Made by a program: the position numbers and the translations under genes
The notes under the pieces: model-generated
What the model saw: the letters and a program-made list of their open reading frames with translations, nothing else
Told to the model about the DNA's origin: nothing
Databases searched by the model: none
Shown: positions 2,773-18,218 of the stretch, one piece after another
Layout of the letters: the number at the start of each line of letters is the position of its first letter
Numbering within the stretch: position 1 is the first letter of the stretch
Origin: an uncultured Gammaproteobacteria bacterium
GTDB taxonomy: Bacteria; Pseudomonadota; Gammaproteobacteria; UBA9214
DNA length: 64,000 nt
Assembly: GCA_963748215.1 (NCBI GenBank)
Contig: CAVVHS010000006.1
Coordinates: 576,001 to 640,000 of the forward strand
Direction of reading: 5' to 3'

Positions 2773-3884
2773 CCCGCTGTTACATGCGCCTGTTCGCGAT
2801 TATGCGCAAGGAGGTGCAGCAGCTGGCGCGCGACCGCCTGACACTGGGCATGATCGTCGGCATACCCATGATGCAGATGATCCTGTTCGGCTACGCCATC
2901 AATACCGATGTCCGGCATCTGCACGGGGCAGTGGCCGACGCGGCGCAGACGCAGCTGTCGCGGCAGCTGGTGGCCGATGTCCAGGCCTCGCAGGTGATCG
3001 ATGTGATTCATGTTGTGCAGACCGGTGCACAGGTGCAGGCGCTGCTCGATCGCGGCACGATCGCCGTCGGCATCGTCATTCCACGCGATTTCGAAAGGCG
3101 CCTGCAGGAACGCCGGCGCCGTAATGGGCGTCCGGCCGCGCAGTTGCTGGTGGATGGCAGCGACCCGATCGTGCTGGGCGCCGCACGCGGTCTGACGGGC
3201 CTGCAGCTGCAGCAGGATACCGACCGGCACGAACCGCCCGTCGTGCCGCTGTTCGAGGTGCGCAATTTCTACAATCCGGAGCGACGCTCGGCCGTGTTCG
3301 TGGTACCCGGACTGATCGGTGTGATCCTGACCATGACCATGGCGATGTTCACGGCGGTGGCCATCGTACGCGAGCGCGAACGCGGCAACCTGGAGATGCT
3401 GATCAACACCCCGGTCAGCTCGCTGGAGCTGATGATCGGCAAGGTACTGCCGTTTGTGGCGATCGGTCTGGTGCAGGTGACGCTCATCATGCTGGTAGGC
3501 ATGTGGCTGTTCGATGTGCCCATCACGGGACAGGTGCGCGATGTCTACCTCGCCGCGCTGCTGTTCATCGCCGCCAACCTCACGCTCGGGCTGCTGATCT
3601 CGACGCTGGTACAGACCCAGTTCCAGGCCATGCAGATGACCATGTTCTTTTTTCTGCCCTCGATCCTGCTGTCCGGTTTCATGTTCCCGTTCGACGGCAT
3701 GCCGCGCGCGGCGCAGTACATCGCCGAGCTGCTGCCGCTCACGCATTTCGTGCGCCTGATCCGCGGCATCATGCTGCGCGGCGCGGAGCTGGGCATGATG
3801 ACCGGCGAACTCTATGCCCTGGCGGCCTTCCTGCTGGTGACCATGGGGATCGCGGTGCTGCGCTTCAGCAAGCGACTGGACTGA
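2769..3884 (+). CDS. ABC-2 type permease (YbhR/YbhS-like)
   Basis: YNPE...VPGLIG, RERERGNLE, LSGFMFP motifs; ATGA overlap with the ATPase gene. Confidence 0.92.
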   Translation: MTRCYMRLFAIMRKEVQQLARDRLTLGMIVGIPMMQMILFGYAINTDVRHLHGAVADAAQTQLSRQLVADVQASQVIDVIHVVQTGAQVQALLDRGTIAVGIVIPRDFERRLQERRRRNGRPAAQLLVDGSDPIVLGAARGLTGLQLQQDTDRHEPPVVPLFEVRNFYNPERRSAVFVVPGLIGVILTMTMAMFTAVAIVRERERGNLEMLINTPVSSLELMIGKVLPFVAIGLVQVTLIMLVGMWLFDVPITGQVRDVYLAALLFIAANLTLGLLISTLVQTQFQAMQMTMFFFLPSILLSGFMFPFDGMPRAAQYIAELLPLTHFVRLIRGIMLRGAELGMMTGELYALAAFLLVTMGIAVLRFSKRLD

Positions 3885-3936
3885 TGGCGGCCGGCCGTCG
3901 CAGAATCAGCGCGGGTTGCCACCGGGAGGTACCCTA

Positions 3937-4584
3937 ATGCCCCCGCGTATGGTGTTGCTGCTGGTCGGGCTCGCACTGCTGACCGTGCTGATCCAGATCA
4001 ACCTGCTGGCGATCGCCTTCGACAAGCTGGGGCTGTCGCCGCACGCCGCCATGACCCTGGTGCTGTTTGCGCTGTTCGGCAGCGCCATCAACCTGCCGCT
4101 GGCGCGGATCACGGCCGAGGCGCCGGCGGAACCCCCGCCGCCCCTGCCCGCCTGGCTGCAACCGCTGCAGATTCCGTTCGAGGGCACGACCCTGATCGCG
4201 GTCAACCTCGGCGGCTGCATCATCCCGGTGGCTTTCTCGGCCTACCTGATGGCGCACAATCCGCTGCCATTCATCGAGGTACTGTCGGCCATCGCCATTG
4301 TCAGCCTCGTCAGCAACCGGCTCAGCCGCCCCATACCGCGACTGGGTATCGCCATGCCGGTACTGGTCGCGCCGTTCACCGCCGCCCTCACCGCCCTGCT
4401 GATCAATGCCGAACACGCCGCCCCGCTGGCCTACATCAGCGGCACCCTCGGCGTGCTGATCGGTGCCGACCTCCTGCGTCTCGGCGATATACGCAAAATG
4501 GGTACACCCCTCGCATCCATCGGCGGCGCCGGCACCTTCGACGGCATTTTCATTACGGGGATCGTGGCGGCGCTGCTGGCCTGA
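3937..4584 (+). CDS. DUF1614-family membrane protein
   Basis: GSAINLP, AVNLGGCIIP, GVLIGADL, SIGGAGTFDGIF motifs. Confidence 0.85.
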   Translation: MPPRMVLLLVGLALLTVLIQINLLAIAFDKLGLSPHAAMTLVLFALFGSAINLPLARITAEAPAEPPPPLPAWLQPLQIPFEGTTLIAVNLGGCIIPVAFSAYLMAHNPLPFIEVLSAIAIVSLVSNRLSRPIPRLGIAMPVLVAPFTAALTALLINAEHAAPLAYISGTLGVLIGADLLRLGDIRKMGTPLASIGGAGTFDGIFITGIVAALLA

Positions 4585-4593
4585 TCATCTATT

Positions 4594-4648
4594 GAAAGAT
4601 CCGGATGCATGCCGCGTAAAACGCGTAAACTGTATCCGGCCCCTCTCT
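4594..4648. repeat. Variant hairpin R0 (CCGGATGCA...TGTATCCGGCCCC)
   Basis: Inverted arms around cgcgtaaaacgcg; the right arm tgtatccggcc recurs at ~11238. Confidence 0.55.
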
Positions 4649-4652
4649 GGGG

Positions 4653-4714
4653 GAAATCGGGGTCAGAGCACAATATTCGCTAATATTAGGAACAATTGTG
4701 ATCTGACCCCAGTT
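4653..4714. repeat. GGGGTCAGA-type hairpin R1 (subfamily A)
   Basis: gaaatcggggtcagagcacaat...attgtgatctgaccccagtt. Confidence 0.9.
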
Positions 4715-4823
4715 GCTCCAGTTGCCATGCCGTTCTAGATTCTTGCAGGAATGACCACTTTGGGTCGCCTTCCGGCTACAAGACAATTCTTTTAGAGAGC
4801 AGTCTACGGATGTGTTCCTGTTG

Positions 4824-5360
4824 CTAGTCCAGTGACAGCGCAGCTATTTTCTGCAATCCCTGGCGGATGTTGTCTTGTGCGGCTCCCTCAACTGCAAGTC
4901 GGATTCGCGTTACGGCAGCGAATGCTTCGCCAGCGGTTGCTGTATGAGAAGACTTTACAGATTCTCTCATGACGGCATTGCCAGTTCTCGTATTCACCAG
5001 TGACCATGCCATTTCCATATCGATCGTGAAAGAAAATCCGAACATGGGTTTTGACATGCTGATCAGTGACACGCTCAGCATGTAATCCGCACCATCGCCC
5101 TTGATCACGCTGGAAAACAGACCGGACGTCTTAATGGATTCCTCGATAGCGGCGGCCAGATCCTCGTTGGATATGTTTGTATAGTCCATGGCGCCGGTTT
5201 CGCCACCACCACTTGTTCTGATGCTGACTGAATACGGATGCCTGGCACCGAACGACGTGTCATCGACCACGAGTGCTTGCTTGCTTGCCGGCGATGCGCA
5301 GCCGGAGAGCCACACAACGATGGAGCATGCCAGTACCTGACGGATAAGATTAATTGGCAT
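4824..5360 (-). CDS. Hypothetical lipoprotein
   Basis: WLSGC lipobox; AT-richer than flanks. Confidence 0.75.
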   Translation of the reverse strand: MPINLIRQVLACSIVVWLSGCASPASKQALVVDDTSFGARHPYSVSIRTSGGGETGAMDYTNISNEDLAAAIEESIKTSGLFSSVIKGDGADYMLSVSLISMSKPMFGFSFTIDMEMAWSLVNTRTGNAVMRESVKSSHTATAGEAFAAVTRIRLAVEGAAQDNIRQGLQKIAALSLD

Positions 5361-5805
5361 TGTCGGCTCCTTGCTTCTGCTTACTGAAGAAGATGTTGGT
5401 GAGTACCTCGTCCACCATTCCCTCCTGCGATTTTCTTGTCATGGATGTATGAAATGAGTTCCCGGTAGCAAGCGGGAAATCTGTTTTTGGCTCTCTCAGA
5501 GTTACGGTCAGTTCGAGCATGTACATCGTGATATCCCAGAACCATTTATCTACGTAGGTGACGATTGCATCGACATCGGCTTCGGTCTCTGACACCTGAA
5601 AGCCCATTTCCAAAAGTTTTCTCTTTATCACGAGATTGGTATCCCTCGTGTCATCGCTGTATTTTTTCACATAGAATAGCTTGAGACTGGACAGGTCTGT
5701 CGTCTGGTCAACGGTTGCCGTCGCCCGGTTTATAGCGCAGCCATGCAGTAAGGCAAGCACCATCAGCAACACAACGATAAATTCCGTTTTTTCCTTTTGT
5801 AGCAT
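5350..5805 (-). CDS. Hypothetical lipoprotein
   Basis: LLHGC lipobox; Y.DKW.WDITMY motif; overlaps the next gene. Confidence 0.75.
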   Translation of the reverse strand: MLQKEKTEFIVVLLMVLALLHGCAINRATATVDQTTDLSSLKLFYVKKYSDDTRDTNLVIKRKLLEMGFQVSETEADVDAIVTYVDKWFWDITMYMLELTVTLREPKTDFPLATGNSFHTSMTRKSQEGMVDEVLTNIFFSKQKQGADNAN

Positions 5806-5851
5806 GGCTTGCTCCTTGTTTTATGTCTTTACCCGGTTGTGCAGCAATATG

Positions 5852-6373
5852 TTACTCAAACGCGTCGTCACTTCCAGAAAATGTTTTATCCTGTCCGGCA
5901 GATACCGATTCCTGTATGTACGCGCGCTTTTCTTCTTCCCATTGTATTTTCGAATTTTCGTCGAGCCAAACTTCAGGTTCCATCCAGATTACTACCTTGT
6001 CCGGGTAGCGCTGGGCAGCTCCGGACGATGCGTCGAATAGAATCCCTATTCCACCACCGAGGATTACATTACCCATGGTTGCGCCGGCAATCGCCTCATC
6101 GAGCTTCAGGGTGGCAGGCTTGTAGCCGGGCTTTGTGCAAGTAACTATTAGCGGGGCATTCCCCCTGGTCATATAAGTCGTTCCGGGTGTGCGGGGTATG
6201 AATGACCGGTTGCCCTTGCTGTCAACCAAAGTACAGCTTGCGCCGGTTACATTCTTTTCAGTAACGACCCGGATGCCCTGGTCCGTACCAGAAGTGATAG
6301 TGGCGCAACTTGATATTGCACAGCCAGCGAATGCCGCGATGCAAATGCATTTTAATTTCCACAAAACTTCCAT
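5852..6373 (-). CDS. Hypothetical lipoprotein with glycine-rich GNVILGGGIG motif
   Basis: Start MEVLWK at 6373; ISSCATI lipobox; C-K-GY and GNVILGGGIG..DA.SGA pattern. Confidence 0.75.
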   Translation of the reverse strand: MEVLWKLKCICIAAFAGCAISSCATITSGTDQGIRVVTEKNVTGASCTLVDSKGNRSFIPRTPGTTYMTRGNAPLIVTCTKPGYKPATLKLDEAIAGATMGNVILGGGIGILFDASSGAAQRYPDKVVIWMEPEVWLDENSKIQWEEEKRAYIQESVSAGQDKTFSGSDDAFE

Positions 6374-6527
6374 GTTGCTCTGCCGTCGCAAGTTATATCC
6401 CGTCCAATCGCTAATACATGAAACCGGTAATAAACAAGCGCTCCGGGTACTGATCCTTGTCAGTTTGGGTGGTAATAATATGCAATACAGGGGACAGCGC
6501 CTACCTCTGGAGTGGAATGACGAGGGT

Positions 6528-6588
6528 AAATCGGGCTCAGAGCACAATATTCGCCAATATCAGGAACAATTGTGCTCTGAGCCCAGTT
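6528..6588. repeat. GGGGTCAGA-type hairpin R2 (subfamily A)
   Basis: Near-identical to R1; the core change GGGCTCAGA/TCTGAGCCC is compensatory. Confidence 0.9.
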
Positions 6589-6597
6589 GTTTTCGCT

Positions 6598-6679
6598 ACC
6601 GGCTAAGCCGCCCCATACCGCGACTGGGTATCGCCATGCCGGTACTGGTCGCGCCGTTCACCGCCGCCATCACCGCCCT
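6598..6679 (+). repeat. 82-bp copy of an internal part of the DUF1614 gene (source 4316-4397)
   Basis: Direct comparison gives 80/82 identical. Confidence 0.92.
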
Positions 6680-7269
6680 TTGAATACTGCCTTGAGTATG
6701 AAATGGGTCGGCATGAATATGAGTAAGGGGTACGCACACATCAGCAACGCCAGATACAGAGGACCGGAGACCCATGTCTGGGGCGGGTTGCCGATACCAA
6801 AGACCCAGTTGAGGTTTCTTTCCGGATCGGTGGCCAGGTAACAGACCGGAAGCAGAACCCAGATCAACACTGTCTGCGCATAAACGGCACGCCTGTCGTA
6901 GCCCAGACGATGGATCATCCAGAGCAGTAGCACGGGCAGGACGACATGGAACAGGGAAAAGAACCTGAACAATAGCGTGTGACGGGATTCAAACATGTAC
7001 CCGGTCGCGTTGAGGCCGATCACATCGAAACCTGCAATCAGGCGCAGAAAATAATCCAGGTTCCAGGCCAGCTCCGGCAGCAGCACGCCAACCGCCATCA
7101 TACTGGTGAGAAACCGGTTCTCCATCCAGAGCGCCGGCACAACAGACAGCAGCGCGATATCCGATAACCAGAGAAAATTCGCCGGCCCCCGCTCCATCCA
7201 GTAAACAGGCACAAGGATACAGACAAAGAGCGTACAGGCTATCTTCAGCCACAGGGAAAGCATCATCAC
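6670..7269 (-). CDS. Hypothetical integral membrane protein
   Basis: Multiple TM segments; NFLWLSDI, SLFH, N.NWVFG motifs. Confidence 0.8.
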   Translation of the reverse strand: MMMLSLWLKIACTLFVCILVPVYWMERGPANFLWLSDIALLSVVPALWMENRFLTSMMAVGVLLPELAWNLDYFLRLIAGFDVIGLNATGYMFESRHTLLFRFFSLFHVVLPVLLLWMIHRLGYDRRAVYAQTVLIWVLLPVCYLATDPERNLNWVFGIGNPPQTWVSGPLYLALLMCAYPLLIFMPTHFILKAVFKGR

Positions 7270-7360
7270 GACAGGTATCCAGTGTCTATGCGGGCCTGTT
7301 TATCATTTGTCAAACGACAAACCGTTCGCGTTTTATATCATTGAAATGCCGGCTTGCCAG

Positions 7361-7380
7361 CAGATCAATCGAGTCTGACA
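7361..7380. repeat. Isolated right arm of a subfamily C hairpin
   Basis: cagatcaatcgagtctgac is identical to 14271-14289. Confidence 0.75.
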
Positions 7381-7399
7381 CACTACTGTCCCTCATAAC

Positions 7400-7486
7400 C
7401 GTCATTCCCGCGAAGGCGGGAATCCAGGAATTTTTGTGCCCCTGCTAATCAGTGACTGGCTGGATACCCGCCTTCGCGGGTATGAC
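7400..7486. repeat. CGTCATTCCCGCG-type REP-like palindrome pair
   Basis: cgtcattcccgcgaaggcgggaatccag ... ctggatacccgccttcgcgggtatgac. Confidence 0.8.
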
Positions 7487-7535
7487 ATCATTGTTGTTCT
7501 GGAACTTCATGTCCAGGTACAGCCCAACACAATCC

Positions 7536-7650
7536 AAGGAACCTCTGATTAATTCACTCACCGTCATCCCGGCGCATGCCGGGATCCAGTGTTATTAATG
7601 GCCTGGATGCCGGCTATCGCCGGCATGACGAATCAATCGGAGATTCCCTT
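7536..7650. mobile_element. Inner MITE-like element enclosing a second CGTCAT-type palindrome pair
   Basis: aaggaacctctgattaattc ... gaatcaatcggagattccctt imperfect TIRs; inner pair at 7562-7630. Confidence 0.6.
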
Positions 7651-7728
7651 ATCACTGGATCAGCCACATTCAATAAATTTCCAAATGATTATGAGGGACA
7701 GCAGGGAATCTGATCCCCATTGATCCTG

Positions 7729-9267
7729 CTATTGCTCTACCCCCGCAAACGCGATCCCGCTCAACTGCGCCAGTTCCGGCTTGCAGGTCGCAAGATCGTC
7801 CCGGCTGAACGCGTTCAGGTGCGCATGGCCGCAGGCCCTGGCCATCACCTGCATCAGCTCGACGGAGGCGCCGAGAAATCTCGCCAGCTTCAGCGCGGAC
7901 GCGTCGACGTCCAGGCGCCGGCGCAGTTCGGGTTGCTGGGTGGCGATACCGGAGGGGCAGTTGTTGGTGTTACAGATGCGTGCCGCGATACAGCCGATGG
8001 CCTGGATGGCACTGTTTGCAATGGCGATGCCGTCCGCGCCGAGCGCCAGCGCCTTGATGAAATCCGCCGGCACCCGCAGGCCGCCGGTAATGATCAGCGT
8101 GACCCGCCCGCTGGCGCCTGCCTGGTCGAGGCAGCGCCGGGCGCGCGCCAGTGCCGGGATAGTGGGTACGCTGATGTGATCGCGGAACAGCAGCGGGGCC
8201 GCGCCGGTGCCGCCACCGCGCCCGTCCAGGATGATGTAATCCGCGCCGGCCTGCAGGGCGAACTCGATGTCGCGTTCGATGTGGTTCGCGCTCAGCTTGA
8301 AGCCGACCGGGATGCCGCCGCTCACTTCGCGCACCCGGTCGGCGAAACGCCTGAAGTCCGCCGGGTTCTCCAGGTCGGCGAAGCGCGGCGGTGAGACCGC
8401 CGCCTGTCCCGCCGGGATGCCGCGCACCTCGGCGATCCTGTCCGAGACCTTCGCCGCGGGCAGGTGTCCGCCGGTGCCCGTCTTGGCGGCCTGGCCGCCC
8501 TTGAAGTGGAACGCCTGCACCTGCCGCAGCAGTTCCTCGCGATAACCGAACTTCGCACTCGCCAGCTCGTAGAAGTAACGGCTGTTGGCCGCCTGCTCCT
8601 CCGGCAGCATGCCGCCCTCCCCCGAGCAGATACCGGTACCCGCCAGTTCGGCGCCCTGCGCCAGCGCGACCTTCGCCTCCTGCGACAGCGAGCCGAAGCT
8701 CATGTCCGAGACGAACAGCGGCATCTCCAGGCGCAGCGGCCGGCGCGCTTCCGGGCCGATGACGAGGTCCGTTCCCACTGCCGCGTCCTCCGCGAGTGGC
8801 CTGTGGGCGAGCTGCGCGACCATTAGCTGGATGTCGTCCCAGTGTGGCAGGCGGTCGCGCGGCACCCCCATCGCCGCCATCGGCCCGTGATGCCCGAACA
8901 CCGCCAGGCCGTCGCCGGCCAGCGCATGGATGAACTCCACCGTCGGCTCCTCGGCCGTGGGGTGTACCGGCGGTACGGGGCCCTCATCGCCCGCGACCCC
9001 CGGTCCCTCCTTGCCCACCTGCTCCGCCGTGAACTGCTTGTGGCTACCGTCGCAGTACGGCGCGTTGCGGGTGTGCTTGCAGGCGCACAGATAGGCCTCG
9101 CTGTCCTCGTCGGCGACGATGACCTTCGGCGCAAACGGGGTGTTGACGTGCGAACCGTCGCAAAACGGCTGGCTGCGCGAGCGGCCGCAGGTGCAGAAAT
9201 GGTATTCGTGCCCCTTTTTCAGGTTGACCCTGACGGGCTTGTTGTCGGCGACAATCGGGTGCTTCAT
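7729..9267 (-). CDS. FMN-binding glutamate-synthase-family protein with two N-terminal CDGSH Fe-S domains
   Basis: CTCGRS..QPFCDGSH and CACKHT..PYCDGSH; MSFGSLS, SGEGG, GQAAKTGTGGHLP, C..ARIC.TNNCPSG. Confidence 0.9.
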   Translation of the reverse strand: MKHPIVADNKPVRVNLKKGHEYHFCTCGRSRSQPFCDGSHVNTPFAPKVIVADEDSEAYLCACKHTRNAPYCDGSHKQFTAEQVGKEGPGVAGDEGPVPPVHPTAEEPTVEFIHALAGDGLAVFGHHGPMAAMGVPRDRLPHWDDIQLMVAQLAHRPLAEDAAVGTDLVIGPEARRPLRLEMPLFVSDMSFGSLSQEAKVALAQGAELAGTGICSGEGGMLPEEQAANSRYFYELASAKFGYREELLRQVQAFHFKGGQAAKTGTGGHLPAAKVSDRIAEVRGIPAGQAAVSPPRFADLENPADFRRFADRVREVSGGIPVGFKLSANHIERDIEFALQAGADYIILDGRGGGTGAAPLLFRDHISVPTIPALARARRCLDQAGASGRVTLIITGGLRVPADFIKALALGADGIAIANSAIQAIGCIAARICNTNNCPSGIATQQPELRRRLDVDASALKLARFLGASVELMQVMARACGHAHLNAFSRDDLATCKPELAQLSGIAFAGVEQ

Positions 9268-9392
9268 GGTGGCTCCTGTGCATGCGCAAAGGTTATCCGG
9301 AACCTGCACAGGGTACCGGCCGACACCGCTCATGAAAAGCCGGCAGCCGCAGGGGGCTTCAGTGTCACCCGGCAGGAACCGATGTAATCTTC

Positions 9393-9447
9393 AGGGTCAG
9401 ACGCCAATAATTGCCGGACACCCGAAGATCGATGGCCTCTGACCCCG
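9393..9447. repeat. GGGTCAGA-type hairpin R3 (divergent)
   Basis: agggtcagacgcca...tggcctctgaccccg. Confidence 0.7.
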
Positions 9448-9501
9448 TGTAGCGTTTGCTATACTTGTTTTCAGTTGCTGACATAGGAGGGTGTGGCAGT
9501 G

Positions 9502-9810
9502 ATGGAAGATTCAGGCAAGCCCCGCGAGGTGCTGTCAATCACCGAAAGTGCCGGCGATGTACCGGACTGGATCATGTCGCTCGCCCCGGTCGGGGTGGCA
9601 TTCGTCTGTTACGTCAGCATCATCCTGGCCGCGGGCATTGATCCGAAAGAGAAAATCATCGCCTACGGCGCGGCGGCAGCTTTCATCGGCCTGGAATGCT
9701 ACTGGATACTCCGCGGCCTGCAAAACAATCATTTCGGCACGATGGTGACGGGGTTCCTCGGCGCGGCAATGGCAGTACTCGTCCTCGACCTGTACCTGTC
9801 ACTGCTATGA
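9502..9810 (+). CDS. Small hypothetical membrane protein (gene X, source of two duplicated fragments)
   Basis: AGGAGG RBS upstream; three hydrophobic segments; start could be GTG 9493. Confidence 0.7.
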   Translation: MEDSGKPREVLSITESAGDVPDWIMSLAPVGVAFVCYVSIILAAGIDPKEKIIAYGAAAAFIGLECYWILRGLQNNHFGTMVTGFLGAAMAVLVLDLYLSLL

Positions 9811-9843
9811 TGGCCGTGAAGCCGGGGGCGCTGCAAATGCAGC

Positions 9844-9905
9844 AAAGGTACCAGAGCGCAATTGCCGCGAATATTCGGGAAACGTGTGCCCTGACACCAA
9901 CGGTT
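9844..9905. repeat. Degenerate subfamily A hairpin R4
   Basis: ggtaccagagcgcaatt...gcgaatattcggg...gtgtgccctgacacc. Confidence 0.65.
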
Positions 9906-10400
9906 CTATTGCTTGACCGGTGAGGCGGCGGGTGGCGAATTCGCCTCTTTCGCACCCATGTAGGCAGTCAGTGACTTGAATCCGCCTTTCAGCACGTACA
10001 CATTCTCAAAACCGATATGACGCAGCGCGGTCCCGGCCGCAGCGGCCCGTGTACCGGACGCGCACACGATCACCACGGTCTTGTCTGTCGGTATGCGATC
10101 CAGGCCGGCCTCGGTAAACAACTCGTTAAACGGAATGACCTGTGAATCCGGCAGCGTCATGCTGTAGACAGCGGCCTCGGCGGGTGTCCTGATATCGATC
10201 ACCGCCAGCGGTTCCTTTGACTTCACCTTCTCTACGAACACATCCGGTGGCATCAGGTGCAAGGCCTTGCCGGCATCGGCACCCTGCACTGGCGCGAACA
10301 ACTTCGCATAGCTTTCCGCCAACGCCTTGTCATAGGACCAGGCCGACGTCGCAAAGGTCATGACAACCATCAGCAGAAGCGTTTCAGGCAGGTGTTTCAT
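9906..10400 (-). CDS. Exported rhodanese-like domain protein
   Basis: Signal peptide MKHLPETLLL...SAWS; IDIRTPAE, VCASGTRA, LKGG. Confidence 0.85.
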   Translation of the reverse strand: MKHLPETLLLMVVMTFATSAWSYDKALAESYAKLFAPVQGADAGKALHLMPPDVFVEKVKSKEPLAVIDIRTPAEAAVYSMTLPDSQVIPFNELFTEAGLDRIPTDKTVVIVCASGTRAAAAGTALRHIGFENVYVLKGGFKSLTAYMGAKEANSPPAASPVKQ

Positions 10401-10425
10401 AACAGCAGTTCTCCATTGATGAATC

Positions 10426-10490
10426 GAAACCGGAGTCAGATACGAGTTTTCGATTATATAAGGGAAAACCGGGATCTGACCCCGGTTTTC
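10426..10490. repeat. Hairpin R5 (subfamily B)
   Basis: gaaaccggagtcagat...gggatctgaccccggttttc. Confidence 0.9.
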
Positions 10491-10498
10491 TAATATTG

Positions 10499-10584
10499 AT
10501 TTCGGCACAACGGTGACGGGGTTCCTCGGCGCGGCACTGGCAGTACTTGTCCTCGACAGGTACCTGTCGCTGGCCTGAAGGCCG
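10499..10584 (+). repeat. 86-bp diverged copy of the 3' end of gene X (source 9731-9816)
   Basis: Ungapped alignment gives 75/86 identical; includes the TGA stop. Confidence 0.9.
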
Positions 10585-10598
10585 ATCCGTCAGGCACG

Positions 10599-10660
10599 GA
10601 AATCGGGGTCAGAGCAGAATTGTTTCTGATATTCGCGAATATTGTGCGCTGACCCCGATT
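10599..10660. repeat. Hairpin R6 (subfamily A, loop inverted relative to R1/R2)
   Basis: gaaatcggggtcagagcagaatt...attgtgcgctgaccccgatt. Confidence 0.9.
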
Positions 10661-10685
10661 ATTCGATTATTTCTATTTCCGCAGA

Positions 10686-11123
10686 TTACCTGTCGCGTAG
10701 TGCTTTTATGTCGCCAGGTGTAAACGTGGTGTAGGTCCTTGACCATTTGATTTTACCTGTATTGTTCTTCTTTTCTTGTTTGTAGTGATCGCCCTCCTTG
10801 TATATCGGGACGCAATTCTCCTTCGTGTTATTCCAGTTAATGCACAGGCCCTCTTCAGTCGCGCGCCAGACGCCAGTTTTATTGGTCTTGCCCTTAACCG
10901 AATACACTTCCCCATCATCGGCGAAGTAATTAATGAAAGGCTCTGAGTAAAAACTACTCATGCCCTGACTGCGGCCCTCCACGTAATCACCTTCGACAGT
11001 GTTGCCTGAAAACAGGGATCGAATCTCATCCGCGGACAAATTGTCGGATGCAGATGACGGGATTGTTGCAAGCAGAATGATTGCCGAGAAGAAAGCCCTG
11101 ATGAATGCCTGGTGCGTGTACAT
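10686..11123 (-). CDS. Exported hypothetical protein (DUF995-like)
   Basis: Signal peptide; LSADEIRSLFSGNTVEG, G.W....GLC..W....NC; AT-rich. Confidence 0.7.
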   Translation of the reverse strand: MYTHQAFIRAFFSAIILLATIPSSASDNLSADEIRSLFSGNTVEGDYVEGRSQGMSSFYSEPFINYFADDGEVYSVKGKTNKTGVWRATEEGLCINWNNTKENCVPIYKEGDHYKQEKKNNTGKIKWSRTYTTFTPGDIKALRDR

Positions 11124-11197
11124 ATGCGTGCCTCATTATTTGGACGGTTATTACTGTTAAATTGAAGTGTAGACGACTCAAGCATAAAACCTCAATT

Positions 11198-11256
11198 GAA
11201 ATCGGGGTCAGAGCACAATTGTTTCTTCTGTGGAAAATGTATCCGGCCACTTTTTC
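11198..11256. repeat. Hybrid hairpin R7 (A-type left arm, R0-type right arm)
   Basis: gaaatcggggtcagagcacaatt...aaatgtatccggccactttttc. Confidence 0.75.
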
Positions 11257-11260
11257 CGGT

Positions 11261-11324
11261 CCGGTCGGGGTGGCATTCGTCTGTTACGTCGGCATCATCC
11301 TGGCTGCCGGCATTGAACCGAAAG
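11261..11324 (+). repeat. 64-bp copy of an internal part of gene X (source 9586-9649)
   Basis: Ungapped alignment gives 60/64 identical. Confidence 0.9.
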
Positions 11325-11328
11325 GTGC

Positions 11329-11393
11329 GAAACCGGAGTCAGATACGAGTTTCCGATAATATAAGGGAAAACCGGGATCTGACCCCGGTTTTC
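11329..11393. repeat. Hairpin R8 (subfamily B)
   Basis: Near-identical to R5. Confidence 0.9.
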
Positions 11394-11638
11394 TATTGTT
11401 GTAAAGCGTAAAGCATCACCGCAACACCCACTGAGGTCAGGATAAGCGAAATGATATTCTTTGTTTTATTTGTTTTGATTGCTGTGTATGCCATACCGAT
11501 ATTCATACTGGATAGCGGACCATGTCGTTCGTTATCTTTTTTGTATGATGCGGGACCAAGCCGAACAAACATGAGGCCGATTCCCGCAACAATCAGAATC
11601 AATCCGTAAAATGCAAAGATCAAACCGTCAGCGCTCAT
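11393..11638 (-). CDS. Small hypothetical 2-TM protein
   Basis: 81-aa AT-rich ORF with hydrophobic ends; stop overlaps R8; purine-rich RBS-like stretch upstream. Confidence 0.6.
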   Translation of the reverse strand: MSADGLIFAFYGLILIVAGIGLMFVRLGPASYKKDNERHGPLSSMNIGMAYTAIKTNKTKNIISLILTSVGVAVMLYALQQ

Positions 11639-11836
11639 ATATTATCTTCTTGTAGCCTAACTACCATTGGGCCAACCAATGAAAGCATCAAGACGACTGC
11701 TGATTCGCATAACATTTATATTATCTCGATAAGACCTGTCACTTTCCCAGCTTACAGGCATGATATACGGATTGAAACAGACCCGAAAATCGAACCCTGA
11801 ATTCGCTCAACCCGCCCCTCCCGTCTAATACAACAC

Positions 11837-11915
11837 GAAACCGGGGTCACGAAACCGGGGTCAGAACCGAGTACCCGATAATATAAGGGGAAGCCGGGAT
11901 CTGACCCCGGTTTTC
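11837..11915. repeat. Hairpin R9 (subfamily B) with tandemly duplicated left arm
   Basis: gaaaccggggtcac gaaaccggggtcag ... gggatctgaccccggttttc. Confidence 0.9.
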
Positions 11916-11940
11916 TCATCGGGAACCGGCCCGGGATTTT

Positions 11941-13167
11941 TCAATCAGCGGCCTGCCTGCGGCAGGACACATACCACAGCAGCAGCGCGATCGACAGCAA
12001 CAACGCCTGCCCGATGACGAAATGGTGCCGCTGTGTGTGCAGGGCCGGCACGGCGATGCCGGCAACCGCCGCGTTGATCGCCATCTGGAAGAAACCCTGC
12101 ATCGACGCCGCCGTGCCGCGGTGATGCGGGAAACAGTCGAGGGCGAGAATGGTGATCGCGGGCATGAGCATGGCGGTGCCTACGGCATAGATCACGAGCG
12201 GTCCGATGGTGAACACGACGGTGGCCTCGAACAGCCCCACCTGGACGAGGTTGAGCACGACAGCAAGGACAAGGACACCGAATCCGGTACTGACAATGCG
12301 CAGCGGCGACAGGTATCGCGACAGTCGGCCGGAGGCGAAAGCGCCCAGCATCAGGCCGGCGACCATCGGGATGAACTGGACACCGAAATCATCGGTGCCC
12401 AGGCCGAGGAAGTCGTAGATGACCGTCGGCGCACCGGCGATGTAAAGAAAGAGTCCGCCGAAGCTGAAACCCAGGCTCAGGATCATCAGCGGGAACTGGC
12501 GGTGCTGCAAGGTCCGGGTGTAGACACTTGCCACGACCGAGGGCCGTACCGACTGGCGCTGGGCCTCGGGCAGGGTCTCGCGGATAACCGCCGTCAGACC
12601 GATCAGCAGCGCCCCGAGCAGGCACAGAAACCAGAACACGCTGCGCCAGCCGTAGTGATCATGCAGCCACGCACCCAGTACCGGCGCGATGGCCGGCGCC
12701 AGCGCGAACACCAGCATCACCTGGGACATCGCCCGGTGCGCGCTTGTCGTATCGTGCGCATCGCGGATCATCGCCCGCCCGGCGATCAGGCCGCCGCTGG
12801 CCGCGAAACCCTGCAGCGTGCGCCACACGAGGAAGGCCGTGGCATCAGCGGCCAGCGCGCAGCCTATGGACGCCAGGACATACAGCGACAGGCTGCCCAT
12901 GATCACCCGCCGGCGCCCGAAGCGGTCGGCCAGCGGCCCCCACAGCAGCGTCGAGGCCGCAAAGGCCGCCAGGTACACCGACAGGCTCTGACTCAGCAGC
13001 GCGCGACTGATACCGAACGTCGCCTCGATGTCCGGGAACGATGGCAGGTAGGCATCGATGGAGAACGGCCCCACCATCGACAGCAGCGCGACGATGAAGG
13101 TCAGGCGCGTGTGTACGCCTGGACGGATAACGGCGTTTTCGGAAGGAGGAAATGGTGGCTGGCTCAT
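11941..13167 (-). CDS. Bcr/CflA-family multidrug efflux MFS transporter
   Basis: PFSIDAYLPSFP, GPLADRFGRR, APAIAP.LG; ~12 TM segments. Confidence 0.92.
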   Translation of the reverse strand: MSQPPFPPSENAVIRPGVHTRLTFIVALLSMVGPFSIDAYLPSFPDIEATFGISRALLSQSLSVYLAAFAASTLLWGPLADRFGRRRVIMGSLSLYVLASIGCALAADATAFLVWRTLQGFAASGGLIAGRAMIRDAHDTTSAHRAMSQVMLVFALAPAIAPVLGAWLHDHYGWRSVFWFLCLLGALLIGLTAVIRETLPEAQRQSVRPSVVASVYTRTLQHRQFPLMILSLGFSFGGLFLYIAGAPTVIYDFLGLGTDDFGVQFIPMVAGLMLGAFASGRLSRYLSPLRIVSTGFGVLVLAVVLNLVQVGLFEATVVFTIGPLVIYAVGTAMLMPAITILALDCFPHHRGTAASMQGFFQMAINAAVAGIAVPALHTQRHHFVIGQALLLSIALLLWYVSCRRQAAD

Positions 13168-13248
13168 AGATCGCAGAGCCTAGCGATTCTTAAGCGCTTT
13201 TTCTACGACAGCTTATCTTGATAGTTAATTGTATTCACCCCTTTATTC

Positions 13249-13947
13249 TCAGGCTGTATTTAGACGTAATTGATCTCTGTCTACTGTTGTGCCTTCGGTA
13301 TCTCCAGCCAGACAGTCGAACAGCTCGGCCCAGGTCTCGCTGTCGCCCCGCACGTCACGGTTGTTCAGCTCGTGGATGCCGAGCCCCTGCTCCACGGCAC
13401 TGACATAATGCAGGGTGTCGCGCAGGCGTGCGGCGACCGGAATGTCGAGCTTGTTGAGAAAGCGTTCCAGCTTGTCGACGGCCCGCGTGCGGATGCGCGT
13501 CCGGTTCGTGACGATAGCAAGGCGCGTGTTGTGCACCCTGGCCTTGCCCACCAGCAACAGGTCCCTGATGAAGTCAGCCGTGGAATGGATATCGATCGAG
13601 GAAGGCAGCACCGGGATGAGAATGATGTCGGCCTCGGCAACCCGGTCTTCGAGATCGATCGCGGCACAACCAGCCGGCGTGTCGGTAATGATATAGCGGG
13701 TATCCTGCGGGACACGCATCTGCCAGGCACGCGTGACGCCCGCCGCCGGCGGTTCGTAGGCGGCCACACAATGAATCGGCGGGCTGCCGGCGGGCCGCGT
13801 CGTTGCCCAGCGGCTGGTGGAAGCCTGGCGGTCATAATCGAACAGCGCGGTTACACAACCGCGAGACGCGCAATAACTGGCCAGATTGGTGGCGATCGTG
13901 GTTTTACCGCAGCCACCCTTGCTGTTCATCACGCTGATCCTGAGCAT
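13249..13947 (-). CDS. ParA-family ATPase (orphan)
   Basis: NSKGGCGKTT deviant Walker A, D.D.Q, DTPAG, PVLPS.ID. Confidence 0.9.
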   Translation of the reverse strand: MLRISVMNSKGGCGKTTIATNLASYCASRGCVTALFDYDRQASTSRWATTRPAGSPPIHCVAAYEPPAAGVTRAWQMRVPQDTRYIITDTPAGCAAIDLEDRVAEADIILIPVLPSSIDIHSTADFIRDLLLVGKARVHNTRLAIVTNRTRIRTRAVDKLERFLNKLDIPVAARLRDTLHYVSAVEQGLGIHELNNRDVRGDSETWAELFDCLAGDTEGTTVDRDQLRLNTA

Positions 13948-14229
13948 GTTTGATCCAGCCCCCGTGCTTGAGTACGTAGTTGCAATGCGATCCGTTTATT
14001 TTACCAGCATTGCCAGCTGTATCCAGCGATCAGCCAGAGACTTGATCAAAAGAAAAAATGCGCGTCGTGAACCTGAGCCTTGTTCGCAGCGGCAAGTCTG
14101 CTTTTTCAGGGGGTTCGTCGATAATCCTCTCGCACAACAGGATAAAGATGATGTAATTGTCTGGAAAGTCTACTTCGTTGGTCGGCCACTCGAACATGCG
14201 GTCGAGGAAGATGTAAATGGTGTCAGGAC

Positions 14230-14299
14230 AATCAATAGGGTCAGACACCATTGATTCGTCAAGACATCGTCAGATCAATCGAGTCTGACCCCATTGATT
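14230..14299. repeat. Hairpin R10 (subfamily C)
   Basis: aatcaatagggtcagac ... gtctgaccccattgatt. Confidence 0.85.
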
Positions 14300-14538
14300 C
14301 AATTTTCTGTGGGTTTAGAAACGCCCGTGAACTTGAAAATGAGTTTGCTTAGGTACCTTTCAGTCGGACGAAAAACATACGCTGCACCAGCAGGCATTAT
14401 TGTGAAGAAAAACCTCTCTTCATTGTCCTCTGCGGCAAATAGTACCAATACAGCGATAAGGGCAATCGTGATCAGCGCATACATTGCCCAAGCTCTTTTA
14501 AGGTAGGATTGATATTTACCGTTTTGAATGTTTGTCAT
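14299..14538 (-). CDS. Small hypothetical membrane protein
   Basis: AT-rich ORF MTNIQNGKY...; two hydrophobic segments; stop overlaps R10. Confidence 0.6.
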   Translation of the reverse strand: MTNIQNGKYQSYLKRAWAMYALITIALIAVLVLFAAEDNEERFFFTIMPAGAAYVFRPTERYLSKLIFKFTGVSKPTEN

Positions 14539-15076
14539 AATGTGAAATACATAGTGCCGCTTATCGGTAATTTGTCTGTACAAAATACGATGGCTTTAAT
14601 AACCTTTTAGTTGCCTAACAGTATAATCGAAGTAATCTTTAGTATTACTACTTCTGCGTAACCGTTCTTTTGTGCGAATAAGCGATTCCGCATAGCATCA
14701 ACGGCAATGTAACGCATCAAGGCTTTCATTAAGACGGAAAACGGCCGCAGGATCAATACCCTGTCACTGGATCTACCCACTTCAACCGCGAAACCGCCCT
14801 CCATTAACAAGCGAGAGAGCGCCAGAACGGCCAGGATGACTGGCGTTTTCGCCACCTGTTTCGATGCGTTACGGATTCTGCGTTACGACCGGCTGCAGAC
14901 GCCTGCGGGATGGAAGGTGGATGAGCACTAATCGTAATGGCTCACTGACAACCCGATCAGCCAGTATATATGTACTAATCCAATAATTATATTTCTGCCG
15001 CCAAAATTGACGACCAGGACATTCTGCGCGCCCAGCGTGGCATCGCAATGTGACTATGTAAATTTGGTTTTATTTT

Positions 15077-15245
15077 TCTCTGCGACCTTTGCGTCTCTCG
15101 GCAACTGCTTCCTGCGTTGCCCTCGGTTCTGGTATCCTGCTTCGCCCTACCGAGTCCATCCCTGGACTCGTACCTCCTACATGGCCCAGGCCAGTTTCTC
15201 GACCGCTCTGCGGCCTCACCTTCTCCCTGTAGTCGTGCGCAAGCC
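15077..15245. repeat. Composite intergenic palindromic repeat
   Basis: ctcggcaactgcttcctgcgttgccct, gagtccatccctggactc hairpin, and ccctgtagtcgtgcgc shared with 32671-32686. Confidence 0.55.
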
Positions 15246-15254
15246 AGTTCTTTT

Positions 15255-17598
15255 CTAAACCCGCACCTCAAACCCACTAATCGCAATCTTCAACACCTCG
15301 TCGATCCGCGCCACCGGAATGAAGGTCATCGCCGCCCTCACCTCCTCCGGCAGTTCCTCCAGGTCGGCCTCATTGTCTTTCGGCAGGATCACTCGCTTGA
15401 ACCCGGCACGGTGCGCAGCGAGCATCTTCTCCTTGATGCCGCCGACCGGCAGCACCAGGCCGCTGAGCGTGATCTCGCCGGTCATGGCGATGTCGTCGTG
15501 GATCGAGGCGCCTGTGTAGGCAGAGGCCAGCGCGGTGGCCATGGTCACGCCGGCGGACGGGCCGTCCTTGGGCGTGGCGCCGGCCGGCACGTGGATGTGC
15601 ATGCCGGACTTGCGGATCAGGTCGGGTGCGATACCCAGTTCCTTCGCCTGTGACCAGATATAGCTTTGGGCAGCGCGTGCGGATTCCTGCATCACGCTGC
15701 CGAGCTGGCCGGTCAGGGTGAGGTCCTTGCCTTCCGGCAACATCACAGCCTCGACGTACAGCACCTCGCCGCCGGTCTCGGTCCAGGCCAGGCCGGCCAC
15801 GATGCCCGGGATCAGTTCCGCGCGCTTGCCCTCGCGCGCCATGCGCGGCGGGCCGAGATACTCGGTGATGAGTTCTTCGGTCAGCGTGACCGGCTCGGTG
15901 TGACCCTCGGCGATGCGTGTGGCGACCTTGCGCACGATGCGGCCCAGGGCGCGTTCCAGCGAACGCACGCCGGCCTCACGCGTGTAGTTGCGGATGACGT
16001 AGGCGAGCGAAGTGTCGTCGATGACGAGCTGTTCCTGCTTGACGCCGGCGTTATCCAGGGTACGGCCGAGGATGTAGCGGCGCGCGATCTGCAGCTTTTC
16101 CGCCTCGCTGTAGCCGGACAGGCGCAGCACCTCGATGCGGTCGAGCAGCGGCGCGGGGATGGTGTCGAGCGTGTTGGCGGTCACGACGAAGAACACCCCG
16201 GACAGGTCGAAGGGCTGGTCGAGGTAGTTGTCGCGGAACTCGTTGTTCTGCGCCGGGTCGAGGATCTCCATCAGGGCGGCGGCCGGATCGCCGCGGAAAT
16301 CGCGGCCCAGCTTGTCGATCTCGTCCAGCATCAGCAGCGGGTTGCTGACCCCGGCGCGGCGCACGGCGCGGATGATGCGCCCGGGCATGGCACCGACGTA
16401 GGTGCGGCGGTGGCCGCGCAGTTCCGCCTCGTCGTGCAGGCCGCCCAGGCTCATGCGTTCGAAGGTACGGCCCAGCGCGCGGGCGATGGACTGGCCGAGC
16501 GAGGTCTTGCCGACACCGGGCGGGCCGACGAAGCACAGGATCGGTGCCCGTGCATCGGGATTGAGTTTCATGACCGCCAGGTGCTCGATGATGCGGTCCT
16601 TGACCTCCTTGAGGTCGTAGTGGTCCGTATCCAGCACCTCGCGCGCCTGCACCAGGTCGAGCTTGTCCTCGGTGCGCTTCGTCCACGGCAGGTCCAGCAC
16701 CAGGTCGATGTAGCTGCGCATGGTCTGGTAGTCGGGCGAGTTGGCCGACATGCGTTCCAGCCTCGAGAGCTCCTTGTCGATCTCCTTGCGCACCGCTTCG
16801 GGTAGCTCTGCCGCCTCCAGGCGTTCGCGCAGCCCGGCCACCTCGGCCTGCTCGGGCGAGGATTCCCCGAGCTGCTCCTGGATCTCGCGCAGCTGCTGGC
16901 GCAGCATCATCTCGCGCTGCTCCTTGCTCATTTTCGTCGGTGACCGCGCTGGAGATCTGCTGCTGGATCTCCAGCACCTGGATCTCGTGGTTGAGGTAGT
17001 CGACGATCAGGCGCAGCGCATCGAGCTGGCTGTTGGCGGCCAGCAGCTGGTACTGCTTATCGATACTGATCGAGATCACCGCGGACAGTACGTAGGCCTG
17101 CTCGATCGGCTTGTCCAGGTCGGAGACCAGCTGCTTGAGGTCGATCTGCATCTGCGCGGGCCCGAGTTCCAGCATGCGCGCCGCCTGGTCGAGCATGGTG
17201 CGGTGCAGGGCCTCGAGCTCCGAACCGGTATCCTCCAGTTCGGGCAGATAGGCGGACTGGCATTCGAGGAACGGCGACTCGCTGGTGAGCAGCTCGCGCT
17301 CGATGCGCCGGCCGGCCTGCAGCACCAGGTTGATGGTGCCCTGGGTGCGCTGCATGCGCTTGATCACGCACAGCGTGCCGACCGGGTACAGATCATCCGC
17401 GCCCGGTTCCTCGACGGTGGCGTCGCGCTGCGTGAACACGACGATGCGCTTGTCCTCGGTCGCCAGTGCCGCCTCGACTGCGGCGACCGAACGCGCGCGG
17501 CCGGCGGTCACCGGCATGACCATGTGCGGGAAGATGACGCTGTTCTTGAGCGGGAACACCGGCAGGATCAGGGACGTGGCGTGGGAATCGGTCGTCAT
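15255..17598 (-). CDS. lon: Second Lon (endopeptidase La) with an apparent +1 frameshift near 16932
   Basis: LON N-domain ([15 protein letters not shown]) in ORF 16051..17598; AAA+ GPPGVGKTS and PKDGPSAG in ORF 15255..16931. Confidence 0.88.
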
Positions 17599-17928: not shown

Positions 17929-18116
17929 TCGCCCGTATTGCGCATGGGGTAATCATACCCGAGTGGGCGCAGTTTGCAGCCGGTGCCGCAGCGGGCGTTG
18001 ACATGGCGCAAGAAACGGGCGTGGATTGCCCTCCGCAATGCGATTATCGGGGCGGGAACCCTTCTCAAGCGTGAAGAATTTTTGGCCCTTCCCCAAATCG
18101 AGTGGGCAGATTAGCG

Positions 18117-18145
18117 TTGTAGGGCCGAATTCATTCGGCCTACAA
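18117..18145. repeat. GTAG-type REP palindrome
   Basis: ttgtagggccgaattcattcggcctacaa. Confidence 0.6.
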
Positions 18146-18218
18146 CCATGCCATCAGAAGCAATGCGTCTCGGAGCAATTCGCGGACGCGTTACGCTCCT
18201 GCGGGTTATGATAGCCGC

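Follow-up and report, generated by a model that had tools for sequence, protein, structure and literature searches.

Ten clustered hairpin repeats resembling TIRYT terminal repeats, with rearrangement breakpoints at their edges, in a gammaproteobacterial gene array

Introduction

Palindromic repeats packed between small genes raise the question of whether they are recombination sites around which genes are gathered or repeats that have accumulated in a permissive region. We addressed this question in a 64,000-nt stretch of an uncultured gammaproteobacterium (UBA9214; assembly GCA_963748215.1, contig CAVVHS010000006.1, positions 576,001–640,000), hereafter the window, in which all coordinates are given. 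A preliminary description of this DNA had reported about 12 related hairpins within 10 kb, bracketing units of small genes, and had proposed that they serve an enzyme encoded elsewhere that accumulates foreign genes cassette by cassette, as the integron integrase does at attC but with different sites. Our analysis identifies ten sites of one hairpin family, confined in the window to a 10.7-kb compositional mosaic between two core genes. We consider, with a probability of roughly 60%, that they are gene-less, head-to-head dimers of the terminal inverted repeats (TIRs) of TIRYT-type transposase genes, comparable to REPINs (doublets of repetitive extragenic palindromes, REPs, that form hairpins), and that the array is a by-product of hairpin-centred recombination.

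TIRtrons were described by Di Nocera et al. (2013; PMC3733652) as genes with long flanking inverted repeats that resemble REP-associated tyrosine transposase (RAYT) genes and encode TIRYT enzymes. According to the passages of that paper used here, TIRs of TIRYT genes share the motif GGGGWSAS, and their repeat families are moderately abundant and occur as singles, dimers or clusters. The corresponding section of Quentin et al. (2018; PMC6006769) assigns 20 of 26 TIRYTs to subclass 2.1 of the TnpA-Y1 (HUH-Y1) transposases, equivalent to RAYT group 1, with the motif GGGG[AT][CG]A[CG]. Group 1 is the largest RAYT group in the account excerpted from Bertels et al. (2017; PMC5581495), with flanking 16-mers at about 12 per replicon and some copies on plasmids. 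REPINs, as outlined in the part of Bertels and Rainey (2011; PMC3116915) cited here, are non-autonomous, intergenic and thought to be mobilized in trans by a single-copy Y1 enzyme. Our literature search turned up no experimental account of the function of TIRYT or RAYT group 1 enzymes, and a search by hairpin motif returned primers and unrelated sequences only.

Results

Ten hairpins of one family cluster within a compositional mosaic

A covariance-model scan, already suggested in the preliminary description, was run on the full 64 kb with filters off, using a model derived from 17 aligned hairpins (six from the window and 11 same-subfamily copies found in other genomes) and a site threshold of E < 0.05. 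It returned ten sites, all in 4649–14303 and none in the remaining 54 kb of the window, where the best match reached 11 bits (E 0.4). A span of ≤9.65 kb was reached in none of 200,000 trials of ten random sites. With ≤1 mismatch allowed, the window contains 24 occurrences of the motif GGGGTCAGA, compared with 14.1 ± 3.7 in shuffled sequence; 20 of the 24 lie within 4659–16352, and a repeat search grouped the window copies into families of 66–74 nt. Eight of the ten sites are dimers, one is a half site (R7) and one is degenerate (R4; Table 1). Between the flanking DUF1614 and lon genes, G+C content at third codon positions (GC3) shifts at most hairpins and ranges from 0.43 to 0.87.

The reported clustering therefore holds for ten sites, and two elements of the earlier count fall away: R0 is a separate hairpin, and the supposed arm pair (7361 and 7707) consists of directly oriented half units and does not form one hairpin. 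R0 (4601–4640) is 40 nt long, lies just past the DUF1614 stop codon, folds with a z-score of −4.5, has no match to the model and may be a terminator.

The hairpins share conserved ends, a conserved centre and compensated stems

The consensus reads AAAYC-GGGGTCAGA-variable stem-TAATATTA-variable stem-TCTGACCCC-GRTTT. All 17 aligned copies have the foot AAAYC/GRTTT, the conserved parts of the alignment being the ends AAAYCGGGGTCAGA and the centre TAATATTA. Compensatory changes affect six of the 18 predicted pairs, all in or beside the variable stem, and the compensatory change noted earlier in R2 is real in both arms (GGGCTCAGA/TCTGAGCCC). Folding as single-stranded DNA (ssDNA) gave seven of the ten hairpins z-scores of −4.2 to −7.5, beyond every one of 200 shuffles; the remaining three did not surpass them all, with z-scores of −2.3 (R3), −1.1 (R4) and −0.45 (half site R7).

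Conserved asymmetries between the arms give every subtype an orientation. Subtype A comprises R1 and R2 on the plus strand and R6 and R7 on the minus strand, R7 retaining one arm only; subtype B comprises R5, R8 and R9, all on the plus strand; and subtype C comprises R3 and R10, in which each arm is a 25-nt palindrome centred on GTCAGAC. An exact GGGGWSAS match is present in at least one arm of eight of the ten hairpins, R2 carrying the compensated variant GGGCTCAG and R4 being degenerate; of the 18 matches in the window, 13 lie in 4594–14620.

The two direct half units belong to subtype C, and the segment that they delimit (7364–7717) reads as one subtype C unit split by a nested insertion. 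The insert (~310 bp) has a 13-bp inverted repeat, CTGTCCCTCATAA / TTATGAGGGACAG, with TCTGA(C/T) on both sides, and its internal repeats (7401–7427 and 7460–7486) are of the kind ATTCCC-N8-GGGAAT, which we take to resemble the dRS3 / CGTC-1 repeats of Neisseria mentioned by Di Nocera et al. (PMC3733652).

Hairpins sit between genes, usually 0–110 nt past a stop codon, and the stop codons of orf81 and orf94 lie within a hairpin. B-type arms score as terminator-like sites, and the hairpins probably also serve as terminators or 3′ stabilizers of the preceding genes. Tandem duplications of an arm were observed at the left end of R9 (14 nt, twice) and, as two or three arm copies, in four loci of other genomes (L034, L047, L048 and L066); they look like the outcome of slippage or of repeated cutting at the arm.

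Fragment breakpoints coincide with hairpin edges

Three duplicated gene fragments lie among the hairpins (Table 1): one from the DUF1614 gene and two, X′c and X′b, from gene X. Three of their six breakpoints fall ≤6 nt from a hairpin edge (P 2.6e-4) and four ≤12 nt (P 7e-5), which bears out the earlier expectation that hairpin edges would coincide with rearrangement boundaries. These breakpoints support recombination at hairpins; dedicated cassette capture is not shown by them.

In the intact DUF1614 gene, the left breakpoint reads GCAACCGGCTCAG, close to the hairpin arm GAAACCGGGGTCAG. This likeness, noticed post hoc, suggests that a TIR-like pseudo-site inside the gene was used. X′c lies between R5 and R6 and X′b between R7 and R8, R5 and R8 being near-identical. 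With X′b to the right of X′c, the order of the fragments is permuted relative to X, and the permutation is possibly circular. The arrangement R5-X′c-R6-orf145-R7-X′b-R8 could have arisen if a unit bounded by A-type hairpins had been cut out as a circle and re-inserted through a B-type hairpin, orf145 then being inserted at the A-type site.

Y1 transposase genes adjoin such hairpins in other genomes

Scanning genomes by a two-arm pattern gave at least 120 stretches (loci, labelled L001 and so on), and all further counts are among the matches listed. The pattern takes any long palindrome holding GGGGTCAGA, so the breadth across many phyla described below is partly a search artefact, and neither it nor the proportion 3/120 is an unbiased estimate.

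Y1_Tnp genes lie beside hairpins in 3 of the 120 loci. Two, L110 and L025, were recognized by a Pfam scan of multi-hairpin loci, and tblastn over the 120 loci and the window added L082, whose Y1 gene is frameshifted. L110 (1492–2298), from a metagenome-assembled genome (MAG) of Woeseiaceae, is a textbook TIRtron and supplies the Y1 gene flanked by hairpin arms that had been suggested as a search target, albeit in another genome. Its 231-aa Y1 gene lies between inverted GGGGTCAGAGTAC arms, one (GGGGTCAGAGTACATTT, at 1492) 103 nt upstream and the other (AAGTACTCTGACCCC, from 2284) over the stop codon. Head to head, these gene-flanking arms make up the hairpins at 906–966 and 2461–2522, which match the window-derived model at 54 and 49 bits; four dimers of the gene's arms occur within 8 kb and bracket units of one to three genes. 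The Y1 gene of L025 (437–3925; Marinobacter MAG) is surrounded by four hairpins that delimit small gene units. One hairpin precedes the gene by 57 nt, and just past the stop codon lies a single GGGGTCCGACCCC unit. The gene units carry a PIN-domain toxin with its likely antitoxin and a glyoxalase-family gene, cargo that we take to be of a kind often seen in integron cassettes.

All three Y1 proteins have HuH motifs (HAH, HTH, HVH), and their best NCBIfam match is REP-associated tyrosine transposase (66, 76 and 28 bits). The full-length L110 and L025 proteins contain YIELNP (Y---NP), which in the L082 fragment lies beyond the frameshift. The preliminary description had put forward a link between GGGG(T/A)CAG-type repeats and HUH/Y1 transposases. 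This link is published as GGGGWSAS for TIRYT TIRs in the passages cited above (PMC3733652, PMC6006769), and it is also seen directly in these three loci. The arm ends of the window hairpins, GGGGTCAG, fit GGGGWSAS exactly, so the link put forward earlier was right.

Most relatives of the window hairpins are single intergenic copies

The window's own subfamily is present in ten loci, seven with one copy and three with two or more. Their hosts are MAGs of Chromatiales, Ectothiorhodospiraceae, Thiohalobacter and unclassified Gammaproteobacteria, a single-cell genome labelled Pseudomonadota (L052) and Thiohalophilus thiocyanatoxydans DSM 16326, and their neighbours include genes for peptidase U32, a DEAD-box helicase, SelO, PrpF and EF-G. 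Mostly single copies beside ordinary genes are the behaviour of a dispersed intergenic repeat. Loci outside this subfamily span many phyla, with internal stems particular to them. The relative in L002 is a perfect palindrome. In L103, two hairpins (736–808 and 7634–7706), identical including 7–8 nt of flank, stand 6.9 kb apart with genes for a binding protein and a hybrid histidine kinase, dsrC and csrA between them; the pair looks like recent copying in that genome. No locus syntenic with the window was found by blastn among the 120, and the source genome is not among the matches listed.

A further hairpin type, CAACGC-GGGGTCAGnT...TCTGACCCC-GCGTTG, was observed in Arthrobacter, three times at a spacing of 1.1–1.4 kb in L077 (2069–4565), and recurs in at least 11 Arthrobacter/Pseudarthrobacter loci.

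Genes of the array and its flanks

As the preliminary description had indicated, the genes lie almost entirely on the minus strand: of those called in the array, only X is on the plus strand. Read by eye, the translations show lipobox-like cysteines, hydrophobic N-termini and several hydrophobic stretches, so that most array proteins are predicted to be exported or membrane proteins. Two of the larger genes, for the glutamate-synthase-domain protein and the major facilitator superfamily (MFS) transporter, are native-like in composition (GC3 0.84–0.87).

Table 1. Hairpins, genes and gene fragments of the array and its flanks. Bits, covariance-model score for hairpins or family score for proteins; z, folding z-score as ssDNA.
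Feature	Position	Strand	Description
DUF1614 gene (left flank)	3916–4584	+	Intact; Pfam PF07758, E 7e-55; GC3 0.86
Hairpin R1	4649–4721	+	Subtype A; 77.8 bits; z −7.5; between convergent 3′ ends of DUF1614 gene and orf178
orf178, orf151, orf174	4824–6376	−	Small; lipobox-like N-termini; GC3 0.53–0.59; bounded by R1 and R2; weak NCBIfam lipoprotein matches
Hairpin R2	6523–6595	+	Subtype A; 76.3 bits; compensatory G/C swap in both arms
DUF1614 fragment	6595–6679	+	85 nt; 96% copy of DUF1614 nt 398–482; from R2 edge into 3′ end of orf199
orf199	6670–7269	−	Hydrophobic protein; GC3 0.71; last codons inside DUF1614 fragment
Subtype C half units (two)	7364–7390, 7689–7717	direct orientation	~300 bp between, holding other repeats (7401–7427, 7460–7486)
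Glutamate-synthase-domain / CDGSH protein gene	7729–9333	−	Pfam PF01645, E 9e-91; GC3 0.87, native-like
Hairpin R3	9382–9455		Subtype C, weak; 16 bits, E 0.012; z −2.3
Gene X	9493–9810	+	Small hydrophobic protein, 105 aa; GC3 0.74; bounded by R3 and R4
Hairpin R4	9836–9908		Degenerate; 22 bits, E 1.6e-4; z −1.1; between convergent 3′ ends of X and rhodanese gene
Rhodanese-domain protein gene	9906–10400	−	Signal-like N-terminus; Pfam PF00581; GC3 0.67
Hairpin R5	10422–10494	+	Subtype B; 75.4 bits; 95% identity to R8 over 74 nt
X′c	10492–10584	+	85% copy of X nt 232–324 (3′ end with stop codon); from R5 edge to 10 nt before R6
Hairpin R6	10594–10666	−	Subtype A; 70.7 bits; inverted relative to R1 and R2
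orf145	10686–11123	−	GC3 0.59; signal-like N-terminus; between R6 and half site R7, which share an orientation
Half site R7	11193–11261 (model match)	−	One subtype A arm (11198–11226), 97% identical to R6 arm; 16 bits
X′b	11261–11324	+	94% copy of X nt 94–157; starts 35 nt after half site R7, ends 1 nt before R8
Hairpin R8	11325–11397	+	Subtype B; 76.7 bits; end overlaps orf81 stop codon
orf81	11393–11638	−	Small hydrophobic protein; GC3 0.44
Hairpin R9	11847–11919	+	Subtype B; 72.5 bits; 14-nt tandem duplication of left end (11836–11863)
Bcr/CflA-type MFS transporter gene	within 11941–13947	−	NCBIfam TIGR00710, 251 bits; GC3 0.84
Orphan ParA-family partition ATPase gene	13249–13947	−	NCBIfam NF041546, 117 bits (cutoff 180); GC3 0.74
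Hairpin R10	14226–14303		Subtype C; 28 bits; z −5.6; two 25-nt units, each a palindrome centred on GTCAGAC
orf94	14299–14583	−	Hydrophobic; GC3 0.43; stop codon in end of R10
Second lon gene (right flank)	15255–17598	−	NCBIfam TIGR00763, 796 bits; GC3 0.90

Thirteen homologues of the X protein at 60–99% identity comprise the window's own protein and 12 on contigs of 682–14,783 bp. The ParA ATPase beside the MFS transporter hints at plasmid or integrative-element ancestry; in a plasmid collection, the MFS-ParA segment gave weak MFS matches and no close DNA match, and hairpin R5 gave no match. By tblastn, the array cargo proteins shared only generic MFS, ParA and GltS similarity with the 120 hairpin loci, and the large clusters in an all-against-all blastp of the 3019 open reading frames (ORFs) of these loci were likewise generic (response regulators, ABC ATPases and dehydrogenases); a further cluster united the Y1 proteins of three loci. 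In the second lon gene, tblastn places the N-terminal domain in frame −2 (about 16925–17566) and the remainder in frame −3, which points to a frameshift or sequencing error near 16925–16935.

Discussion

What kind of element the hairpins are

The fit of the arm ends to the TIRYT motif, together with the L110 gene, whose terminal repeats are the arms of its hairpins, leads us to regard the window hairpins as gene-less, REPIN-like dimers; lacking a gene and dependent on an enzyme encoded elsewhere, they would be non-autonomous in the manner of REPINs. A TIRYT encoded elsewhere in the genome would cut and rejoin ssDNA at the hairpin foot, as IS200/IS605 and REP enzymes do, and this cutting and rejoining would spread hairpins locally. 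Occasionally two hairpins, or a hairpin and a TIR-like pseudo-site within a gene, would be joined; such joining would excise and re-insert the DNA between hairpins and leave permuted and truncated gene pieces. We infer that the source genome encodes a TIRYT, that this enzyme cleaves the window hairpins and that the rearrangements are its work and not that of host recombination. Read in this way, the array reflects repeat accumulation in a permissive, partly foreign region and is no dedicated platform for gene capture.

Several observations weigh against this account. The window has no Y1 gene by tblastn and no Y1 remnant in a six-frame profile search (best E 2.2), which together with the Pfam results agrees with the earlier claim that any enzyme must lie elsewhere; a cognate enzyme in the source genome is accordingly an assumption. 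In the ten loci of the same subfamily, none of 71 ORFs encodes a Y1 or other recombinase, and the three Y1 genes adjoin more distant hairpin subfamilies (37–54 bits), not the window's own. The NCBIfam scores of the Y1 proteins are all under the curated cutoff of 80, a profile of the three sequences matches ISDra2 TnpA and Escherichia coli TnpA-REP in the PDB weakly (E 0.003–0.006), and phmmer of the L110 protein against the PDB gave no match. The method of Quentin et al. yielded no REP-like repeats near subclass 2.1 genes, as far as the cited section reports (PMC6006769). As to the rearrangements, two of the six breakpoints are away from hairpins (35 and 84 nt); X′b and X′c differ in identity to X (94% vs 85%), so they possibly derive from two X paralogues, in which case there was no circular permutation; and an identical topology would result from RecA-mediated exchange between R5 and R8.

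Alternative explanations

The proposal from which this work started goes further than recombination at hairpins: a Y1/HUH enzyme encoded elsewhere would regularly excise hairpin-bounded units as circles and insert each at another hairpin, leading foreign genes to build up at this locus as at an integron. It has in its favour that the ten hairpins bracket units of one to three genes of differing GC3, that the permuted X fragments fit excision at R6/R7 (A-type) and re-insertion at R5/R8 (B-type), that a TIR-like pseudo-site occurs at the DUF1614 breakpoint and that the hairpin arrays around the Y1 genes of L110 and L025 bracket units of similar size with PIN-toxin and glyoxalase-family cargo. 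The units of L110 and L025 are, however, uniform in G+C content (0.47–0.58). In the window, the sites point both ways, R6 and R7 being opposite to R1 and R2; the units vary irregularly in size, some have native-like GC3, and neither a platform for insertion nor a promoter comparable to attI/Pc is present. Elsewhere, the subfamily occurs mostly as single hairpins beside housekeeping genes (one copy in seven of ten loci), which comes near to the even spread through core intergenic regions that the preliminary description itself had named as contrary evidence, although these are other genomes and not the source. Cassette-wise accumulation of foreign genes is not supported, and we regard such a system as unlikely; the broader notion that TIRYT-type hairpin dimers are functional analogues of attC, with a chromosomal HUH-Y1 enzyme moving hairpin-bounded units as circles to other hairpins or TIR-like pseudo-sites and so building and shuffling a cassette array without an integron, appears to us equally doubtful.

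A different possibility is that the hairpins are old REP-like repeats or terminators with no dedicated enzyme now, rearranged by host RecA, replication slippage or palindrome breakage. Long palindromes are fragile, no enzyme is encoded in the window, R5 and R8 are similar over enough length for homologous recombination (95% over 74 nt), arm duplications resembling slippage are present (11836–11863; L034, L047, L048 and L066), R3 and R4 are degenerate and fold poorly, and B-type arms score as terminator-like. Against these points stand the compensatory changes that preserve stems across genomes, the identical copies and flanks in L103, which argue for recent copying, the DUF1614 breakpoint, whose site is TIR-like sequence rather than a repeat, and the Y1 genes adjoining such hairpins in other genomes. 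This explanation seems to us a little less probable again than a cassette system. Far less probable than either is an attC identity of the hairpins, whether within a chromosomal integron or in an integrase-less cluster (CALIN), despite a length of ~70 bp, a position 3′ of small, AT-richer genes mostly on one strand and an AAC...GTT frame in subtype B. No tyrosine recombinase was found by Pfam in the 59 window ORFs, the conserved R″...AAC / GTT...R′ boxes are restricted to subtype B (R5, R8 and R9), subtype A having AAAT...AGTT or GATT, and R6 and R7 are inverted. Neither the folds nor the consensus structure shows an unpaired central spacer or extrahelical bases, the stems being uninterrupted in both, and the relative in L002 is a perfect palindrome. 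The identification as attC was therefore rejected for want of an integrase, strand asymmetry, a conserved AAC/GTT and uniform orientation, in agreement with the earlier view that these sites differ from attC.

Other identities were also set aside. An element mobilized by a DDE transposon (miniature inverted-repeat transposable element, MITE) does not suit flanks that are inverted (AAAYC / GRTTT), with no direct duplication beyond them at R5, R8 and R9 on inspection. Tn3-type inverted repeats, considered on account of the GGGGTC tip, were discounted on three grounds: an arm length of ~26 nt, a different continuation of the motif and inverted, not direct, flanks. An IS200/IS605 insertion sequence was rejected with no Y1_Tnp or OrfB in the window ORFs; Pfam and NCBIfam searches of all 59 (27 + 32) ORFs revealed no integrase, transposase, Y1_Tnp, OrfB or Phage_integrase family. 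An Rfam scan of 3500–16000 gave one sub-threshold chance match, to mir-1284 (32.8 vs 80 bits).

Relation to known systems

In IS200/IS605 elements, a Y1 HUH enzyme acts on subterminal ssDNA hairpins and forms circular single-stranded intermediates. The window units differ in having no transposase (neither tnpA nor tnpB) and in ending in one continuous palindrome instead of distinct left and right hairpins. In Acinetobacter plasmids, pdif modules are non-integron gene modules bounded by 28-bp XerC/XerD sites, with the enzymes encoded elsewhere; the sites of the window are 70-bp hairpins, and pdif sites were sought by reading the sequence. Like attC sites and CALINs, the hairpins are folded sites of ~70 bp positioned 3′ of small genes that look promoter-less, and their enzyme is possibly encoded elsewhere; they differ by the proposed HUH-Y1 enzyme in place of the IntI tyrosine recombinase, by symmetric stems and mixed orientation and by the lack of attI and IntI.

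The closest likeness is to the TIR families of TIRYT genes: the arms are inverted, with ends that conform exactly to the published motif; repeats occur as singles, dimers and clusters, with one or two copies in related loci and ten in the window; and, in other genomes, a Y1 gene lies between arms of the same kind (L110, L025 and L082). Set beside the textual descriptions available of those families, the window hairpins are distinguished by the AAAYC extension, the TAATATTA centre and their occurrence in Chromatiales-like Gammaproteobacteria, and neither ten gene-bracketing copies in 10 kb nor edge breakpoints are described in the portions of the literature used here. REPINs and their RAYTs of groups 2 and 3 resemble the present case in that two inverted units make one intergenic hairpin. 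A 5′ GT[AG]G tetranucleotide at the hairpin foot is a classical REP feature in the cited section of Quentin et al. (PMC6006769); unlike REPs, the window hairpins lack it, and their subtype A and B arms are not clear palindromes.

A classical GTAG-type REP was observed at 18115–18150 (GTAGGGCCGAAT...ATTCGGCCTAC), with no other copy in the window; it is 87–93% similar to two places in L107 (4275–4334 and 4645–4698) and indicates a second, canonical REP family in the source genome.

Significance

The kind of element is already known; the novelty lies in how densely hairpins are packed into a single compositional mosaic and in the rearrangement breakpoints that coincide with their edges. The locus offers sequence footprints of hairpin repeats in gene-scale rearrangement, namely breakpoints at hairpin edges, a possible circular permutation and a pseudo-site within a gene. 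If this role were not confirmed, the locus would count as an ordinary REP-like repeat cluster of a variable region. Were the hairpin dimers to prove analogues of attC, the largest and least understood RAYT group would gain a role in gene capture. Confirmation of the role in rearrangement would place HUH enzymes that act on ssDNA hairpins beside integrons and Xer/pdif modules as a modular route of gene shuffling.

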